This document shows, piece after piece, positions 42,479-56,221 of a stretch of 64,000 nt of DNA (positions are counted from its first letter, which is position 1; each line of letters starts with the position of its first letter). The translations under genes were made by a program, and so were the position numbers. A model generated the notes under the pieces. The model worked only from the letters and a program-made list of their open reading frames with translations. It did no database searches and was not told where the DNA came from. The DNA comes from Escherichia coli. Its GTDB lineage: Bacteria; Pseudomonadota; Gammaproteobacteria; Enterobacterales; Enterobacteriaceae. The stretch lies in NCBI RefSeq assembly GCF_030384885.1, contig NZ_CP128615.1; one strand, 5' to 3'.

Positions 42479-42584
42479 ATATCAAGCGACTTCTCCTATC
42501 CCCTGGGAACACATCAATCTTACCGGAGAATATCGTTGGCCAAAGCCTTAGCGTAGGATTTCGCCCTCTCCCGCAAACGACCCC

Positions 42585-43486
42585 ATAGCCTCCGCAACCT
42601 GACCATCGTAGTCACGCAGCGTCAGTGAACCCCCGAACAGCTGTTTTACCCGGTACATCGCCGTTTCCGCTATCGAGCGACGGTTGTAATCTGTTGTCCA
42701 TTTCCACCGCGCATTACTCCCGGTCATTCGCTGATTAGCCACTGCACGGTTACGGTCTGCATATTCACCGGGCCAGTAACCCGCACCTTTTCGGGGAGGG
42801 ATAAGCGCGCTGATTTTCTTACGCCGCAGTTCATCGTGACAGAGCCGGGTGTCGTAAGCGCCGTCTGCCGATGCTGCCCTGATTTTTCTGTGAGTCTGCC
42901 GGATAAGACCCGGGAAGGCTTCTGAGTCCGTCACATTGTTCAGCGACAGGTCTGCACAGATGATTTCATGTGTGTTGCTGTCAACTGCCAGATGCAACTT
43001 TCGCCATATACGACGGCGTTCCTGGCCATGCTTTTTGACTTTCCACTCGCCTTCACCAAAGACCTTCAGCCCGGTGGAATCAATCACCAGATGCGCGATT
43101 TCACCCCGGGTGAACGTTTTGAAACTGACGTTAACCGACTTTGCCCGCCTGCTGACACAGCTGTAATCCGGGCAGCGTAGCGGAACGTTCATCAGAGAAA
43201 AAATGGAATCAATAAAGCCCTGCGCAGCGCGCAGGGTCAGCCTGAATACGCGTTTAATGACCAGCACAGTCGTGATGGCAAGGTCAGAATAGCGCTGAGG
43301 TCTGCCTCGTGAAGAAGGTGTTGCTGACTCATACCAGGCCTGAATAGCTTCATCATCCAGCCAGAAAGTTATGGAGCCACGGTTGATGAGGGCTTTATTG
43401 TAGGTGGGCCAGTTGGTTATTTTGAACTTTTGCTTTGCCACGGAACGGTCTGCGTTGTCGGGAAGATGCGTGATCTGATCCTTCAA
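42585..43486 (-). pseudogene. IS903-like transposase, C-terminus replaced by read-through into Tn5393 IR
   Basis: ORF identical to the other copies up to ...VAEAM, then diverges (GSFAGEGEILR) at the Tn5393 junction. Confidence 0.8.
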
Positions 43487-43857: not shown

Positions 43858-44006
43858 AAACTACAGATAAACTACAGATAAACTACAAAAAACGTTTTGC
43901 CTTAGTGTTGTAAGACTACAAATAGACTACAATAAAACTACAAATAAACTACAAAAAACGTGACAGACTACAAATAGACTACAATAAAACTACAGATAAA
44001 CTACAA
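43858..44006. repeat. array of ~11-bp ACTACA(A/G)ATA direct repeats (iteron- or centromere-like)
   Basis: at least 12 copies of (A/G)ACTACA(A/G)AT(A) in 150 bp, preceded by a perfect palindrome GATGGTCATG-cttg-CATGACCATC at 43821-43846. Confidence 0.6.
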
Positions 44007-44066
44007 AACTCGATTGACCCCTTCTTACGAGTGTTGTAGAGTCATTTTCATACAACGGAGGGGGTT

Positions 44067-44246
44067 ATGAATAAACCAGCAGATCTGAAACCCCGCAACT
44101 TATCGGCTGCTGTCAGATTGCGCCTAAATGAAATCGAGAACTGGCTGGACAGAGGGCTAACGCGGCATGAAATTGCTGAAATCCTCGACAGCGAATACAG
44201 CTTTTCGGTAACAGCCAAAGGGCTTGAGATGGATGGCACTGTATAG
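44067..44246 (+). CDS. small hypothetical protein (59 aa), possible DNA-binding regulator
   Basis: strong RBS GGAGGGGG 6 bp upstream; MNKPADLKPRNLSAAVRLRLNEIENWLDRGLTRHEIAEILD...; below the ORF-track length cutoff. Confidence 0.45.
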   Translation: MNKPADLKPRNLSAAVRLRLNEIENWLDRGLTRHEIAEILDSEYSFSVTAKGLEMDGTV

Positions 44247-44465
44247 AACGCGGCAAAACCGAAAAAATGTATTGCACAATACGCATGATAAGAGTAGCGC
44301 GAAGGGTGCAGCGGAAAGTGTATTGCACAATACACAACCGTCTGAGCCTGAAGTGCAGGAAAGTAAAAAAGCAGAGAGTCCCGGCATTATTGATAAAGAA
44401 TTCTTCAAGAAAATCGGTGAGAATTTCGACCCTAAGAAGTTCAACAAAAAATTCTGAGGTGATTT

Positions 44466-44540: not shown

Positions 44541-45597
44541 GGCTTTGTTGAATAAATCAGATTTCGGGTAAGTCTCCCCCGTAGCGGGTTGTGTTTTCAG
44601 GCAATACGCACGCTTTCAGGCATACCTGCTTTCGTCATTTTGTTCAGCGCTCGTACCAGGGCCATAGCCTCTGCAACCTGACCATCGTAGTCACGCAGTG
44701 TCAGTGAACCTCCGAACAGCTGTTTTACCCGGTACATCGCCGTTTCCGCTATCGAGCGACGGTTGTAATCTGTTGTCCATTTCCACCGCGCATTACTCCC
44801 GGTCAGCCGCTGATTCGCAACAGCACGGTTACGGTCTGCATATTCACCGGGCCAGTAACCCGCGCCTTTTCGGGGCGGGATAAGCGCGCTGATTTTCTTA
44901 CGCCGCAGTTCATCGTGACAGAGTTGGGTGTCGTAAGCGCCGTCTGCCGATGCTGCCCTGATTTTTCTGTGAGTCTGCCGGATAAGACCCGGGAAGGCTT
45001 CTGAGTCCGTCACATTGTTCAGCGACAGGTTTGCACAGATGATTTCATGTGTGTTGCTGTCAACTGCCAGATGCAACTTTCGCCATATACGACGGCGTTC
45101 CTGGCCATGCTTTTTGACTTTCCATTCGCCTTCACCAAAGACCTTCAGCCCGGTGGAATCAATCACCAGATGCGCGATTTCACCCCGGGTGAACGTTTTG
45201 AAACTGACATTAACCGACTTTGCGCGCTTGCTGACACTGGTGTAATCCGGGCAGCGCAACGGAACATTCATCAGTGTAAAAATGGAATCAATAAAACCCT
45301 GTGCAGCCCGCAGGGTCAACCTGAACACGCGTTTAATGACCAGAACGGTGGTGATGGCGAGATCAGAATAGCGCTGAGGTCTTCCCCGTGATGAAGGCGT
45401 TGCCGACTCATACCAGGCCTGAATAGCTTCATCATCCAGCCAGAAAGTTATGGAGCCACGGTTGATGAGGGCTTTATTGTAGGTGGGCCAGTTGGTTATT
45501 TTGAACTTTTGCTTTGCCACGGAATGGTCTGCGTTGTCGGGAAGATGCGTGATCTGATCCTTCAACTCAGCAAAAGTTCGATTTATTCAACAAAGCC
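44541..45597 (-). mobile_element. IS903-like copy 3, 1057 bp, intact
   Basis: 18-bp IRs at both ends; same orientation as copy 2. Confidence 0.9.
44597..45565 (-). CDS. IS903-like DDE transposase
   Basis: 322-aa ORF nearly identical to copy 1. Confidence 0.9.
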   Translation of the reverse strand: MKDQITHLPDNADHSVAKQKFKITNWPTYNKALINRGSITFWLDDEAIQAWYESATPSSRGRPQRYSDLAITTVLVIKRVFRLTLRAAQGFIDSIFTLMNVPLRCPDYTSVSKRAKSVNVSFKTFTRGEIAHLVIDSTGLKVFGEGEWKVKKHGQERRRIWRKLHLAVDSNTHEIICANLSLNNVTDSEAFPGLIRQTHRKIRAASADGAYDTQLCHDELRRKKISALIPPRKGAGYWPGEYADRNRAVANQRLTGSNARWKWTTDYNRRSIAETAMYRVKQLFGGSLTLRDYDGQVAEAMALVRALNKMTKAGMPESVRIA

Positions 45598-46099
45598 GTC
45601 TGTGTTGTAAAATGGCGCCGAAAGCCCGGCGTAGCCGGTTGCCGGGCTATAAATTCTGCCACCCTACCCCCTGCCCTGATTAGCCTTAACTCGCGAACAG
45701 CAATGAAGAAGTCAAAGTAATCCCTTTTAACCCCGGTGAGCGGGCTTTACGGCGTTTACGACGTAAAGGGCGTGATTTCCGGGGCCTAAGCGGCGGCAGC
45801 TTGCTGCTGACGCTTAGGGGGATGTTCATCAACTATTTCAGCGACACCAGGGAACTTAACACGGTAGCTGCAAAGCCCTAATCCCGCTCACCGCCACGCA
45901 GCTGCCGTACGTCCCCCACGGGGGTGCGCAGTGCTGCGCGCGGGAACGGCGGCCCGTCTGCGGGACGCGGCGCCGTACTGCGCGTTAGCGGCCGCACGCG
46001 GCCGGTTACGGGGGACACTCCGCCATACGACCAGCGACCCGCTGAGCTGCACAATCCACAGATAACACAAGCTACATACATGTCGATATGGGAATCGGC

Positions 46100-46660
46100 C
46101 CACCTTGCCGGGCGCCGGTGCCGTGTGGAAATCCGCCCACCTTGCCGCGCGCCGGTGCCGTGTGGGAATCCGCCCACCTTGCCGCGCGCCGGTGCCGTGT
46201 GGGAATCCGCCCACCTTGCCGGGCGCCGGTGCTGTGTGGAAATCCGCCCACCTTACCGGGCGCCGGTGCTGTGTGGAAATCCGCCCATCTTGCCGGGCGC
46301 CGGTGCCGTGTGGGAATCCGCCCACCTTACCGGGCGCCGGTGCCGTGTGGGAATCCGCCCACCTTACCGGGCGCCGGTGCCGTGTGGGAATCCGCCCACC
46401 TTACCGGGCGCCGGTGCTGTGTGGAAATCCGCCCACCTTGCCGCGCGCCGGTGCCGTGTGGGAATCCGCCCACCTTGCCGCGCGCCGGTGCCGTGTGGGA
46501 ATCCGCCCACCTTGCCGGGCGCCGGTGCTGTGTGGAAATCCGCCCACCTTACCGGGCGCCGGTGCTGTGTGGAAATCCGCCCATCTTGCCGGGCGCCGGT
46601 GCCGTGTGGGAATCCGCCCACCTTACCGGGCGCCGGTGCTGTGTGGAAATCCGCCCATCT
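46100..46660. repeat. tandem array of about 15 copies of a 37-bp repeat (putative Rep_3 iterons)
   Basis: unit CTTGCCG(G/C)GCGCCGGTGC(C/T)GTGTGG(G/A)AATCCGCCCAC; lies downstream of the truncated repA fragment. Confidence 0.7.
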
Positions 46661-46708
46661 TCATGACAAAAATTTGTCAAATGACAGGCTCATGTGTGCT
46701 GATTTATG

Positions 46709-47011
46709 TCAGACGGGATTTTGCTTATCAATTATTGAGAACAGAAATTTTCCTGAATCATCAATACTATACTTAGCAAGTAAAGGTGTTTTCTCATTTA
46801 TCTGCTTGAGTGCAGGATCAAGGAAAGATCGTTTCAACTCTGCCAAGTTCTTCTGCTGGGATTCCGGTAAGACGAAACGGTCATTTAACCAAGCATGAGT
46901 AGTAACCCATAAGCCTGAAGATTTGAATTGAGCAAGACTTTCATAAAGGCGGATCGTCCGGGGATTTCGAAGACTGCCACAATCGCGGAGCGAGTAGGTG
47001 GTGAACTGGTT
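46709..47011 (-). pseudogene. Rep_3-family replication initiator, C-terminal ~100 codons only (truncated by IS1)
   Basis: translation ...NQFTTYSLRDCGSLRNPRTIRLYESLAQFKSSGLWVTTHAWL... aligns with the C-terminus of the intact RepA at 54593-55459. Confidence 0.8.
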
Positions 47012-47026
47012 GGTAATGACTCCAAC

Positions 47027-47530
47027 TTACTGATAGTGTTTTATGTTCAGATAATGCCCGATGACTTTGTCATGCAGCGCCACCGATTTTGAGAACGACA
47101 GTGACTTCCTGCCCAGCCTTGCCAGATGCTGCCTCAGATTCTGGTTATGCCGCTCAATTCGCTGCGTATATCGCTTGCTGATAACGTGCAGTTCTCCCTT
47201 CAGGCGGGATTCATAAAGCGGCCAGCCATCCGTCATCCATACCACGACCTCAAAGGCCGACAGCAGGCCCGGAAGACGCTCCAGCGTGGCCAGAGTACGC
47301 TCACCAAAGACGCGTGCCACCACCGTCCTGCACATCCTGCCATAGGCGTAAAATAACCAGCGCTGACGTGATTTAGCCCCGACGTAGCCCCACTGTTCGT
47401 CCATTTCCGCGCAGACAATGACGTCACTGCCCGGTTGTATGCGTGAGGTTACCGACTGCGGTCTGAGTTTTTTAAGTGACGTAAAATCGTGTTGAGGCCA
47501 ACGCCCATAATGCGGGCGGTTGCCCGGCAT
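47027..47530 (-). CDS. insB: IS1 InsB
   Basis: 167-aa ORF. Confidence 0.85.
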
Positions 47531-51471: not shown

Positions 51472-51481
51472 AACTTTGGCG

Positions 51482-51550
51482 ATTTCACCTTGAAATTCTC
51501 AGCCTAAACTGCCTAATTACAATAAGTTAGATGTGAAATCGCCATGGCGA
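51482..51550. promoter_or_regulatory. putative P1-type parS centromere (heptamer ATTTCAC and hexamer TCGCCA boxes)
   Basis: GATTTCACC...GTGAAATCGCCATGGCGAAAT immediately downstream of parB. Confidence 0.5.
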
Positions 51551-51552
51551 AA

Positions 51553-52530
51553 TTATTGACTCAAATTTCTGTCAAGGACCTCGTTGATAGCCTTGTCCAG
51601 TTCATCCTGAATCACTTTTGACATACGGCTAAACTCATAAGTCAGCGTACGCCCTTTCACACGCTTACGCGCGAACTTGTCCTTTTCTTCAAAAGACCAG
51701 AGTGGGGAAACCACTGACTTTTCCTTGGGAGATGGATCTATCAATGCCTGAGATGCCTGAGAAATCAGCTTCAGTATACTGGCTTTCTGTTCGTCTTCTG
51801 GTCGCTCGCCTTCACTCAAAATTGCATCGAGCTGAGCTGATACAGACTGAATGAGTTCTTCAGGCGTTAATCCCTTTTCACTGAGTTTTTCATTAACTTC
51901 TAAAAGAAGTTTATAGTCACTAAACGATAGCTCCGACTGAACCGGGAACAGAGAAATCAAGTCTTGCGGTACGGCCGCCGCCTGCAGCGCCCTGGTAACT
52001 TTAGCTTGAGATAACCCCTCCAGTTCAGCAATTTCCTTTTGATTAAATCCGGACTCTTTAAGAGCGATCAATCTCAGGCCAATCTCCCGAAGATTATGTT
52101 CTTTAGCTGTCTGGATATCTTTAGCCAGTTGGCGAGCTTCATCAGCTGATAAATGCTCTTCGGTAACCATTACATCAAGGCCTGTACGGACAAAAATTGC
52201 TGAGGCTCGCCGTCTTGAACCATCCAGTATCTCAATCCTTTCACTTTGCTTAATACCAATACAGGGAAAGAACTGCTGAAACTTAATCGTCTGGATAATG
52301 GATTTCAGGGATTCCCTGGTCAGTGCAAGTTGATCTCTTCCGTTGTTTTCCTGGTTTACGAAGGTCTTACTTTCAACTTCAGATGCAGGCACCCGAACAA
52401 ACCTGAACGTTACCTTCCTGCCGGTTTTTAAGGTAAATACCTGGCTTCTACCGGTGTCCGTCATTTCCGCAATTGACGCCTGGGTATTTAACTGTCTGCC
52501 GATGGTTTTTCTTTTCTCATTCGACATCAC
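51553..52530 (-). CDS. parB: ParB/SopB-family partition protein
   Basis: 325-aa ORF downstream of parA, overlapping its stop. Confidence 0.8.
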   Translation of the reverse strand: MMSNEKRKTIGRQLNTQASIAEMTDTGRSQVFTLKTGRKVTFRFVRVPASEVESKTFVNQENNGRDQLALTRESLKSIIQTIKFQQFFPCIGIKQSERIEILDGSRRRASAIFVRTGLDVMVTEEHLSADEARQLAKDIQTAKEHNLREIGLRLIALKESGFNQKEIAELEGLSQAKVTRALQAAAVPQDLISLFPVQSELSFSDYKLLLEVNEKLSEKGLTPEELIQSVSAQLDAILSEGERPEDEQKASILKLISQASQALIDPSPKEKSVVSPLWSFEEKDKFARKRVKGRTLTYEFSRMSKVIQDELDKAINEVLDRNLSQ

Positions 52531-53732
52531 ATACCTCCGTTAGTACGAATGAACTCGATGCGATCAAAGACTGCCTTCGCAAAGTCTTCCGCTGCTGATT
52601 TTGCGCTTTTTAGTGCCTCTGTACTTCCATCATAGGTTGCTGGATTTGCTGAAATAACTGTGTCAAAAGTCTCCCCACAACGTTCGAAACCATCCAGTCT
52701 TGGCAGAACCATGTCTAGCATATCGGCACCGAAAACCTCTTTGGCCTGACTATGGCAAATTTTGTGATCAGACTTGTTCAGGATCTTGGACATGAAGCCG
52801 ACATTACCGATGAGATTGCAGGTGTGCCCATCCATTTCGATGGAATCTATGAGGGCAGGGAGGCTGGCCACAAACTTCAGGGAAGAATGAAAATCAACCG
52901 TCGCCGGTGGAAGAGGGGTCAACATCAGGTCTGCCGCCCCAATGCAGTTTTTCAGGAACGCATCAAGGTGAGGACCACTATCAAGGAAAATAAAGTCGTA
53001 GTCATGCTGGAGCTTGTCGATAATGTTCTCTTTAAGCACCGCATGAATATTTTTCCCTGGCAGATGTTCTTCACACAATCCCTTCCAGCCTTCAGCAAGG
53101 AATGCATCGTCAATGGAAGCGGGGATTACATCAACACCAGGGATAATAGACGGTACTATAAAATCGGAAAGTAATTCTTCACGAGACACGTTCTGGAGCA
53201 TGGCCTGAGCAGCCGTATTTTCAACCAAGCCCACTGAATTCTCATGGCTCAGGAACATTGTCAGAGATGCCTGCGGATCGAAATCGATGGCCAGAATACG
53301 CAGGTCTTCGAACAGAAGCTGAGGATGAGCTCGAAAAGCATGTGATAATGAAGCGGTAGAAACTGTCTTGGAACCACCACCTTTAAGATTACATACAAAA
53401 ATCGTAAAGGCTTTATCGAAGCGATCCCTGTACTTCGGTACTTTACGATGGTTATACAGATCGATGACATTCTGAATCGTCATCGCGTATTTCATCGTAT
53501 TACCAGAAGGTTTCTTTTTAAAAATGTAGCCACCGGCTTCCATTTCGGACACAGCATACTCAACACTGCCTTTACTGAGCTTAGGCAGCTTATACAGAGC
53601 GGCTTTGCTGTATTCCTGATAGAACTCGGTAAGCTTCAATTCCTCTTTTTGCTGTCGGATACTTTCGCTCAAAGATGTCAGAAGCTTACCTGCACGTGTA
53701 GCGACTTTCCGTAACTGCTCAATATTGTCCAT
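52527..53732 (-). CDS. parA: ParA/SopA-family type Ia partition ATPase
   Basis: 401-aa ORF; deviant Walker A (CNLKGGGSKTVSTASL) after an N-terminal DNA-binding extension. Confidence 0.85.
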   Translation of the reverse strand: MDNIEQLRKVATRAGKLLTSLSESIRQQKEELKLTEFYQEYSKAALYKLPKLSKGSVEYAVSEMEAGGYIFKKKPSGNTMKYAMTIQNVIDLYNHRKVPKYRDRFDKAFTIFVCNLKGGGSKTVSTASLSHAFRAHPQLLFEDLRILAIDFDPQASLTMFLSHENSVGLVENTAAQAMLQNVSREELLSDFIVPSIIPGVDVIPASIDDAFLAEGWKGLCEEHLPGKNIHAVLKENIIDKLQHDYDFIFLDSGPHLDAFLKNCIGAADLMLTPLPPATVDFHSSLKFVASLPALIDSIEMDGHTCNLIGNVGFMSKILNKSDHKICHSQAKEVFGADMLDMVLPRLDGFERCGETFDTVISANPATYDGSTEALKSAKSAAEDFAKAVFDRIEFIRTNGGM

Positions 53733-54125
53733 TTATCACCTCATGACGTTTTTTGTCATTTTGAACAAAAAGTGTCATGTTGCAAGAAAAAAATCATATT
53801 GTTTTGATTTCGCTCTCAACAGAAGGGGGATGAAGCTCGACGGGCGTGCTACTAAATCACACTGCAGCAACACGCAGACGCACTTTTGACCATCAACAGC
53901 AACTCATACAAAAGGGCTTTGAGAAAGGTATTCAACTTGCAAGACAGGAGAGTCATTCAGAAGGATTCTGATTTTAGTTACGACCAGTGCAATGCTGAGC
54001 CTTATGTATCAGCGCTCGCCGCAGCCATGTAACCGAGCGTAGCGAGCGAACTGGCGAGGAAGCGAAGAGGAACCGTTCCGGCAGATAGCTCTTACGCTCA
54101 GCACAAGAAGAGTTTTCCATCCTCT

Positions 54126-54545
54126 GTGGGAAACAGGTCAACTTTAATGGACGCTCCGGACTATGGGAAACAGGTCAACTTCGCGGACGGCCCGGACTAT
54201 GGGAAACAGGTCAACTTCACGGGCGGCCGGGAGTGTGGGGAACAGGTCAACTTCGCGGACGGCCCGGATTATGGGAAACAGGTCAACTTCGCGGGCGGCC
54301 GGGACTGTGGGAAACAGGTCAACTTTGCAGACGGCCCGGACTGTGGGAAACAGGTCAACTTCGCGGGCGGCCGGGAGTGTGGGGAACAGGTCAACTTCGC
54401 GGACGGCCCGGACTAAGGGAAACAGGTCAGCTTCTCGGACGGCCCGGACTATGGGAAACAGGTCAACTTCTCGGACGGTCGGGAGTGTGGGAAACAGGTC
54501 AAGTTAGGCAAGCACTATGGGAAACACAGCAAGTTCAGTATCCCC
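54126..54545. repeat. tandem array of about 11-12 copies of a 36-bp repeat (putative repA iterons / copy-control array)
   Basis: unit TATGGGAAACAGGTCAACTTCGCGGACGGCCCGGAC; immediately downstream of repA. Confidence 0.7.
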
Positions 54546-54592
54546 CCATATGTCAGCAACAAACTAAGGGGGGAGGAAATAAAAATTACAGA

Positions 54593-55459
54593 CTATTGTT
54601 TTTTATCAAGAAAATTAAACAGCAAGCGACCATCTTCTTCAGTGGTATATGTTACCTTTAATGGCGTCTTCTCATTAATTTTCTTCAGAGCAGGTTCCAG
54701 GAAGGTACGCTTCATTTCAGCAATATTGTTTTTCTGCGAGGCAGGGAGCATAAACCTTTCACATAACCAGTCATGTGTGGTGATCCAGACACCAGTGCTC
54801 CGGAACTGACACAGGCTTTCATAAAGCCGGATGACACGAACACTATTAAGCTGGCCACAGTCATAGAGAGAATAGGTAGTGAACTGGGAGGTTAAGCCGA
54901 CCAGGAATGGCATGACCTTGTAGTTAAATTCAATCTGCCAGGAACCCCGGCCTCGCTTCATTCCTGCTTCAGCCAGCCACGGACGTTTAACTTCTTCAAA
55001 CTCACCTTCTTTTGGATAAAAGGTAACCGTTGATTCGCCCAGAGCATTTACCCCAGCCTTCACATCACGACTGGCGACAGACGTAGCGACATTGAAGTAT
55101 TTGACGTAATCGGAAACGCTGATTTTGAAGAGCGGCAATACGTCAGAGTCATCTTCCTGGCTGTCATTAAAATAGGCCTGCATGAGGCATAACCACAGCA
55201 CACGTTTTGCCTGAAGAGGCAGGTAATATGCAGCTTCGGTCAATTCGTTAGATTGCTTTATACTGGCGCGTTTTTTAAACGTTTTAGTAGCTGGCAAGAG
55301 TGCTTGAGTATCCATTTCAATGCCTATGGGTAAATTTTTACCCACCCATAATGACAGTGAAAACAGAAATTGCAAGCTATCGCGATACTTATCCACCGGA
55401 AAAATCTGCACTTTATCCACAAGTGGATAATTGAGAACTGAACTTGACCTCTTTCCCAT
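54593..55459 (-). CDS. repA: Rep_3-family replication initiator (RepFIB-type)
   Basis: 288-aa ORF; N-terminal IKQSNELTEAAYYLPLQAKRVLWL typical of Rep_3. Confidence 0.85.
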   Translation of the reverse strand: MGKRSSSVLNYPLVDKVQIFPVDKYRDSLQFLFSLSLWVGKNLPIGIEMDTQALLPATKTFKKRASIKQSNELTEAAYYLPLQAKRVLWLCLMQAYFNDSQEDDSDVLPLFKISVSDYVKYFNVATSVASRDVKAGVNALGESTVTFYPKEGEFEEVKRPWLAEAGMKRGRGSWQIEFNYKVMPFLVGLTSQFTTYSLYDCGQLNSVRVIRLYESLCQFRSTGVWITTHDWLCERFMLPASQKNNIAEMKRTFLEPALKKINEKTPLKVTYTTEEDGRLLFNFLDKKQ

Positions 55460-55700
55460 AGCTTGTTGATGCGTATCCCATAGCTTGTTGACACAAAACC
55501 CACTGATACGTGATTAATTTCCCATATTATGTTTACCAGTTGCCCATACAGGCCCCCTCTCAGGCCGCACTGTACGCGGCTTTCAGGCTCCCTAAAAGAT
55601 GTAAAATAAAGAAAAAGAATAAAAAAGTACTTTATAAAAATATGCCCGTGGATAAGTGGATAACCCCGAGGGGAGGTGATTTTTCAGGCATTGAGCGTAA
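55460..55700. other. putative oriV region (DnaA boxes, short direct repeats, AT-rich tract)
   Basis: TTATCCACA at 55414-55422, TGGATAAGTGGATAA near 55640, two copies of TCCCATAGCTTGTTGA at 55460-55500. Confidence 0.5.
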
Positions 55701-56221
55701 GCAGAATTTATAAGTTTTGTTCCCTGGTGCTTCCTCGCTCACTCGGGGCTTCGCCCTGTCGCTCGACTGCGGCGAGCACTGCTGGCTCGATCATATCCGT
55801 GGCCGGAAGATACTACTCCTCCCCCGAGTCGCTCTCCAGAGCCGGCTACAGCGAGACAACCCGCACGAAGATTTCTATCGTCCCTGCAGACATATTCGAA
55901 TCGTTTTTATTAACCCTGGCTTCCGTCGTGACAGAACACTACGTCCTGTAAAAGGGGGACTAAGGCCCCTGAATCACACACCTGAATAATGCGGAGTTTT
56001 ACGATAATGTCATTGCTGGAAACTTTCCTGACCGCTTCTCAGGGGGCAACAATCCTGTTCCTTGCCATGCTGATCTACTGGCAAAAGCGATAAATCCAAG
56101 CGGGCTGGCCTTTGGCCAGCTTCGCTGTATAAGGGGAAAAATGCGGCATATCCAGACATTTCACTAGGCAATTTGAATTCAGATATCTATGCTTGGGATC
56201 CGGTCAACAGGAGGTAACAAG

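Follow-up and report, generated by a model that had tools for sequence, protein, structure and literature searches.

What does a long tandem array of 36-bp repeats do between the gene of a plasmid replication initiator and the partition genes that follow it, and is it the origin from which replication starts or a locus through which replication is controlled? The array in question lies at 54126–54545 of the window, that is, of the whole 64-kb stretch of DNA that was analysed. A 2601-bp stretch is 100% identical to plasmid records typed as IncR (MOB-suite/PLSDB), and a 2.6-kb query around the array matched 4546 plasmid records, 539 with at least 99% identity, for the most part from Klebsiella and Escherichia. 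With the initiator RepB as the tblastn query, 1540 records were at least 99% identical. IncR plasmids, which carry multidrug resistance, are widespread in Klebsiella, E. coli, Enterobacter, and Salmonella, and the array belongs to their replication-control region.

The IncR backbone genes parAB, umuCD, retA, and resD are present, as seen from the Pfam assignments ParA, ParB, UmuD (Peptidase_S24), UmuC (IMS), and reverse transcriptase; records identical to this locus also carry annotated resD and vagCD-type genes. On the minus strand, the order is a resD-type integrase, an origin-like region, the Rep_3 gene repB, the 36-bp array, parA, and parB. Beyond parB follow umuDC (plus strand), a reverse transcriptase, IS1, a truncated rep gene with a second array of 37-bp units, and an element of the IS5/IS903 family.

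The 36-bp array is the published iteron array of IncR plasmids, and it lies beside a published IncN remnant; it is real but ordinary. The literature describes “repB and its iterons (36 bp, 10.4 copies)” (PMC9412624), gives 10.5 to 22.5 copies of the 36-bp unit among five IncR sequences (PMC7707992), and lists 10.4–10.5 copies for pST1023 and pHN84KPC (PMC9412624, PMC7707992). The element of the window is identical to that of the pK245/pHN84KPC/pST1023 type, from which it differs in copy number alone, published values reaching 22.5. A remnant of IncN repA, truncated by IS1 and accompanied by its iterons, has also been reported in an IncR plasmid (PMC9412624), and since both elements are published, the finding is already known. 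In the IncR papers the array is called “the iterons” (or “oriV”), and a set of 22-bp repeats upstream of repB goes unmentioned there. No experiment on RepB binding, array deletion, incompatibility, or a mini-replicon was found for the IncR array in the searchable literature. The additions made here are small, namely the overlooked upstream iterons as the likely origin, the position and orientation of the array, which are those of F incC, the synteny with mini-F, and a probably overlong gene model of repB.

Structure of the 36-bp array

The array is composed of 11 units at 54125–54505 (plus strand), each with a core (c)TATGGGAAACAGGTCAACTT(c) of 20–22 bp and a GC-rich spacer of 14–16 bp, and of a more diverged twelfth core, TATGGGAAACACAGCAAGTT, at 54516–54535 (plus strand), which is found 30 bp past core 11 at the array end closest to repB. 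Read in register, 11 of the 12 cores in 54125–54535 are spaced exactly 36 bp, with GC-rich spacers between them. Tandem Repeats Finder delimits a period of 36 at 54127–54502, with 10.4 copies, 86% matches, and a score of 526. The limits proposed in the preliminary description, 54126–54545, are right, because the in-register units and the twelfth core fill them. When the core TATGGGAAACAGGTCAACTT was searched in the 64-kb window with up to three mismatches, 12 matches were obtained, 11 in the array and one on the opposite strand upstream of repB, as against 0.00 expected by chance in dinucleotide-preserving shuffles.

The same description had each unit built of a conserved core of about 19 bp and a GC-rich spacer, and an alignment of the nine internal units agrees with this: 17 of the 22 core columns are invariant, compared with 8 of 14 in the spacer. 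Two spacer variants, CGCGGACGGCCCGGA and CGCGGGCGGCCGGGA (elsewhere written GGACGGCCCGGA and GGGCGGCCGGGA), alternate, and by direct reading 14 of 16 spacer positions are G or C. The GC content of the array is 0.55–0.68, and a short AT-rich stretch (54560–54619, GC 0.27) touches its repB-proximal end. As the cores are read on the plus strand, they are inverted with respect to both repB and the repeats upstream of it. The array sits outside the candidate origin region, between the repB stop (54593) and parA, and a scan of 53600–55800 for promoters and terminators returned no hit above the shuffle expectation. Its length is polymorphic among the seven IncR loci that were inspected, with 12 cores here and 15–19 in the six others, while RepB is identical or nearly so.

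The initiator RepB and the region upstream of its gene

The gene repB (54593–55315, minus strand) encodes an IncR Rep_3 initiator, which would have 240 aa with MDTQ (55315) as its start. Its product contains the Pfam domains Rep3_N (E 1.8e-31) and Rep3_C (E 2.4e-13), and its best match in the PDB is RepE of F (1rep, E 9e-34), which has been solved in complex with an iteron, followed by π of R6K (2nra, E 3e-6). Over the full length, RepB shares 56.8% identity with IncN RepA, 68–71% with the Rep proteins of two enterobacterial plasmids, pCAV1374-228 and pFY26-1, and about 33% with RepE. RefSeq mostly annotates a protein of 288 aa that starts at 55459, within the first of the upstream iterons, so that the gene model crosses DnaA boxes and an operator palindrome; one RefSeq record, NZ_CP056739.1, has the 240-aa version. 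Alignment with IncN RepA and with the Rep of pCAV1374-228 supports the shorter protein from 55315, and the common 288-aa model is probably too long.

In the direction of repB transcription, two DnaA boxes come first upstream of the gene, followed by an AT-rich stretch, a short spacer rich in GC, five iterons, three further DnaA boxes, a palindrome, and the ATG. The five iterons (55440–55549, minus strand) follow each other at exactly 22 bp, have the consensus cTATGGGaaA...gTCAAcaa, and are a candidate set of origin sites for RepB; they run inverted relative to the 36-bp array. Two copies of TCCCATAGCTTGTTGA, at 55454–55469 and 55476–55491, both fall within this set. The AT-rich stretch (55580–55645, GC 0.23 in 55580–55639) is a candidate DNA-unwinding element. 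A scan of the 408 bp upstream of repB revealed five DnaA-box matches. Three separate the iterons from the promoter, namely TTATCCACC at 55389–55397, the perfect box TTATCCACA at 55413–55421, and, on the opposite strand, TTATCCACT at 55422–55430; the other two, TTATCCACT and TTATCCACG, form a tandem at the outer border of the candidate origin (55647–55655 and 55655–55663, minus strand). The repeats sharing CTATGGG in inverted orientation and the DnaA boxes that had been noticed upstream of the gene, then called repA, are thus both there.

The palindrome TGGGTAAA-tt-TTTACCCA (55327–55344) lies 12 bp upstream of the repB ATG and shares the half-site TGGG(A/T)AA with the iterons; equivalent palindromes are found in pCAV1374-228 and in an IncN-typed plasmid (L006). 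It is a candidate operator at which a RepB dimer would repress its own gene. The array cores are 84–94% complementary to upstream iteron 1 over the reported arms (91% in four of six pairs), and the positions TGGG...TCAAC are conserved in both the array cores and the upstream iterons. Judging from this anatomy, the origin is likely to be the upstream set of five 22-bp iterons with its DnaA boxes, and not the conspicuous 36-bp array.

The IncN-type array and the repA remnant

The second array of the window (46087–46661, plus strand) comprises 16 cores TGTGGGAATCCGCCCACCTT at 37-bp spacing, with the spacer GCCGGGCGCCGGTGCCG, in which 16 of 17 positions are G or C by direct reading. Tandem Repeats Finder gives a period of 37 for 46089–46661, with 15.5 copies, 93% matches, and a score of 957, and the core has 16 matches in the 64-kb window compared with 0.01 expected from shuffles. 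Beside it, at 46709–47026 (minus strand), are the last 105 codons and the stop of an IncN repA, a gene truncated by IS1, which starts at 47027. The product of this remnant shares 98% of its residues with intact IncN RepA and 61% with IncR RepB. The IncN-type array in this window is thus a dead remnant. In the literature, the 37-bp IncN iterons are termed a RepA-binding site (PMC9412624), and the region is cited as important to replication and to the control of copy number (PMC6052338).

The lengths of such arrays vary, with 16 cores in this window, 28 in NZ_CP024857.1, 41 in pCTXM65_090011, 24 in L006, and 32 in a further locus (L007), in which the IncN rep gene abuts IS26 and the upstream iterons are absent. 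Where an IncN rep gene is annotated beside the array (L006 and L007), the counts are 24–32; in remnants they are 16–41.

The consensus 36-mer and 37-mer agree in 23 of 39 alignment columns (59%), close to the 60 percent put forward in the preliminary description, and the cores, TATGGGAAACAGGTCAACTT and TGTGGGAATCCGCCCACCTT, in 14 of 21 positions; the plan of a conserved core with a GC-rich spacer holds for both arrays. The initiators are 57% identical. The earlier view of two related but distinct Rep_3 replicons is upheld by the Rep3_N and Rep3_C domains, the IncR typing, and the 61% identity of the IncN remnant to RepB. A conserved spacer sequence was also considered and discarded. When the IncR and IncN spacers (CGGGCGGCCGG and CGGGCGCCGG) were compared, 1731 of 5000 and 4310 of 5000 composition-preserving shuffles reached an equal score, and no conservation of spacer sequence is claimed for that reason.

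Within the core, the first half-site, TGGGAA, is common to IncR, IncN, pCAV1374-228, pFY26-1, and the operator palindromes. The second one is TCAAC in IncR, CCACC in IncN, and similar to CCGAG or CCAGG in pCAV1374-228 and pFY26-1. A second half-site that is specific to the replicon fits a separate specificity of each initiator and, hence, separate incompatibility groups.

Comparison with related replicons

The upstream module recurs, element for element, upstream of the rep gene in IncN (L006), pCAV1374-228, and pFY26-1. Inverted iterons downstream of rep are present in every relative, two in pCAV1374-228, about five with irregular spacing in pFY26-1, 24–32 in a 37-bp tandem in IncN, and 12–19 in a 36-bp tandem in IncR. 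These layouts make the upstream set the constant part of the replicon and the downstream set the variable one. In pCAV1374-228 (2604–2625 of the locus) and pFY26-1 (2591–2612), one extra iteron is found beyond the AT-rich region and the DnaA boxes; the IncR and IncN origins are without it.

A close counterpart is the “iteron I” array of IncN plasmids (pCU1, R46, and pKM101), which is likewise located downstream of rep, inverted, and built as a long-period tandem with a GC-rich spacer, and which is likewise accompanied by a homologous initiator (56.8% identity) and five 22-bp iterons upstream. It differs in its period (37 bp instead of 36), in its second half-site (CCACC instead of TCAAC), and in its larger number of copies.

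The same gene order is found in a mini-F-type replicon (L014), where resD is followed by 22-bp direct iterons TGTGACAAATTGCCCT, repE, five inverted irregular iterons (incC), sopA, and sopB, and no solved and characterised homologue is closer to RepB than RepE. F incC has only five iterons, spaced irregularly (17–124 bp), and is unlike the IncR array in lacking a strict tandem with a conserved spacer. The layout of P1 is also the same, with origin, rep, control iterons (incA), parA, parB, and parS, and the par genes of IncR are of the P1 type. P1 incA is made of nine iterons between repA and parA that do not form a regular tandem. P1 RepA is not known to be a close sequence relative of the Rep_3 proteins.

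The P1-like layout of origin and control region suggested earlier is borne out by the anatomy and by the comparison, given the origin-like module upstream, the inverted array, parA, parB, and a candidate parS. “F/P1-like” is the more exact term because the initiator is closest to mini-F RepE and the synteny is with mini-F. Since inverted downstream iterons occur both in the relatives and in mini-F, the 36-bp array occupies the position, and has the orientation, of F incC and P1 incA.

Proposed function of the array

From its sequence, the array almost certainly represents the RepB-binding iterons of the IncR replicon, and it is probably a control locus and not the origin. By analogy with F incC and P1 incA, there are good grounds to read it as a downstream iteron set that acts as a negative regulator of replication and as a determinant of incompatibility. 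This reading draws on the upstream origin-like module and the inverted downstream iterons, which are common to IncN, to the relatives with 70% identical initiators, and to mini-F. Loci of the F incC and P1 incA type are dispensable for initiation; they bind the initiator, lower the copy number, and exert incompatibility. A recent review attributes the modulation of copy number by extra iterons downstream of rep to titration and handcuffing (PMC12361487).

In the mechanism proposed for IncR, RepB would bind the five in-phase 22-bp iterons and, together with DnaA, open the adjacent AT-rich stretch, so that initiation would take place upstream of repB. The array would offer 12 predicted sites for RepB monomers outside the origin. 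Each core is predicted to be bipartite (TGGGAA ... TCAAC), with a RepB monomer contacting the two half-sites about one helical turn apart, and the second half-site would set the specificity. Titration would consist in the twelve downstream sites drawing RepB away from the five sites of the origin, and handcuffing in a pairing of array-bound RepB with RepB on origin iterons, be it on the same plasmid or on a sister copy. Both would block the opening of the AT-rich stretch, and with it initiation, as the copy number rises. If the array does set the copy number, its length polymorphism could modulate the dosage of resistance genes.

Alternative explanations

The array could itself be the vegetative origin, or a cis-acting part essential to it, and this is the view suggested by the IncR papers, which name it “the iterons” and leave the upstream set unmentioned. 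An AT-rich stretch (54560–54619) does adjoin the array. Furthermore, the related IncN plasmid pCU1 reportedly has three clustered origins, and a long-period array may play a role in cis in initiation. However, on reading the sequence beside the array no DnaA-box match was seen, as opposed to the five that flank the 22-bp iterons in the 408 bp formally scanned. The array is rich in GC, and its sites do not fall in phase with the helix: with a 36-bp period, neighbouring sites are about 154 degrees apart on the helix, compared with 34 degrees for the 22-bp period (2.1 helical turns), which would make the array ill suited to the cooperative wrapping expected at an origin. The relatives whose Rep is 68–71% identical keep the upstream module and have just two to five scattered downstream iterons, and in IncR the number of units goes from 12 to 19 while RepB is unchanged. 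An origin within the array is, consequently, rather unlikely.

A more far-reaching version of the control function was also considered, in which the strictly phased long-period unit is a control design of its own and the dead IncN array is functional. The unit would consist of a 20-bp RepB site and a 16-bp spacer of almost pure G+C, placing successive sites on roughly opposite faces of the helix, and the number of units would be an evolvable dial for the copy number, with a range of 12–19 units in IncR and 16–41 in IncN-type arrays. The dead array, called “region N” and carried by many IncR plasmids, would then not be junk. It could be an incompatibility weapon, titrating IncN RepA and so excluding IncN plasmids, or alternatively a weak additional sink for RepB, an idea that draws on the 14 of 21 positions shared by the cores and on the tolerance of RepB for degenerate sites that the origin iterons indicate. 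Taken together, these proposals are unlikely to hold.

Another explanation grants a role to one or a few units and takes the rest for a neutral satellite, produced by unequal crossing-over or slippage, with no effect of dosage. Whole units, including their spacers, are indeed near-identical, and the copy number is polymorphic. Blocks of several units have been duplicated within the array, with 176-nt copies that are 91% identical at an offset of 144 bp, which means that the array grew by several units per duplication. That whole units are so alike could be due to recent amplification and not to selection acting on each copy. Nevertheless, none of the seven IncR loci inspected, one of them on a 19.7-kb plasmid with a single replicon, has fewer than 12 cores, variation is lower in the core than in the spacer (17 of 22 against 8 of 14 invariant columns), and an array of the same kind exists in IncN. 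A neutral satellite is thus considered very unlikely.

The regularity of the array and its place directly upstream of parA could also indicate a centromere of the adjacent ParAB system, comparable to the 43-bp sopC repeats of F or to the repeat centromeres upstream of some parA genes. The partition genes are parA (52527–53732, minus strand), which encodes a type Ia ATPase with an N-terminal HTH (Pfam HTH_54 and AAA_31), and parB (51553–52530, minus strand), with the “ParB family” domain PF08775. However, a candidate P1-type parS is found directly after the parB stop, at 51477–51544, in the form of an inverted repeat TGGCGATTTCAC ... GTGAAATCGCCA (also written TGGCGATTTCACCTTGAAATT ... AAGTTAGATGTGAAATCGCCA). 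It contains ATTTCAC and TCGCCA, which we take to be box A and box B of P1 parS, and it probably serves the IncR ParAB system as its parS centromere. The core of the array resembles the repeats upstream of repB and no par sequence, IncN has an equivalent array without adjacent parAB, and pFY26-1 has homologous parAB genes without a tandem array. As the type of array follows Rep and not Par, and a parS candidate exists after parB, the identification of the array as a centromere was rejected as highly improbable.

Two copies of a 19-bp unit, TGTCATGTTGCAACAAAAAG, closely precede the parA start, at 53754–53791, in an AT-rich context (GC 0.23), and this repeat is probably the promoter/operator of parA.

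Finally, that the array encodes a repetitive protein is scarcely credible, even though plus-strand ORFs of 96–142 aa run through it and are annotated in many records, because an open frame is automatic in a stop-free 36-bp unit, the 37-bp array of IncN is open in all three plus-strand frames, the number of units varies freely, and no promoter-like site was found in the scanned region. A period of 37 bp is not a multiple of three, so no reading frame can be conserved in the IncN array, and the difference between the two periods led to the rejection of the annotated ORF as a gene. The RefSeq hypothetical protein WP_000339857.1 (89 aa, 54147–54416, plus strand) falls wholly within the array and appears in many records, and WP_223239967.1 is a 192-aa ORF annotated in the longer array of another record; both are probably spurious.

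The stb segment near the IncN-type array

A segment flanked by copies of the IS5/IS903 family (42548–43486 and 44597–45565) contains stbA (44067–44457, plus strand). Compared with the intact 128-aa stbA of NZ_CP024857.1, this copy has a 4-bp GATG duplication (around 44237–44244), which shifts the frame past residue 55. Just upstream of stbA, about 11 copies of the 11-bp repeat ACTACA(A/G)ATAA are arranged in two clusters (43858–44007), and these are probably the StbA-binding set of a stb operon of the IncN/IncW type.
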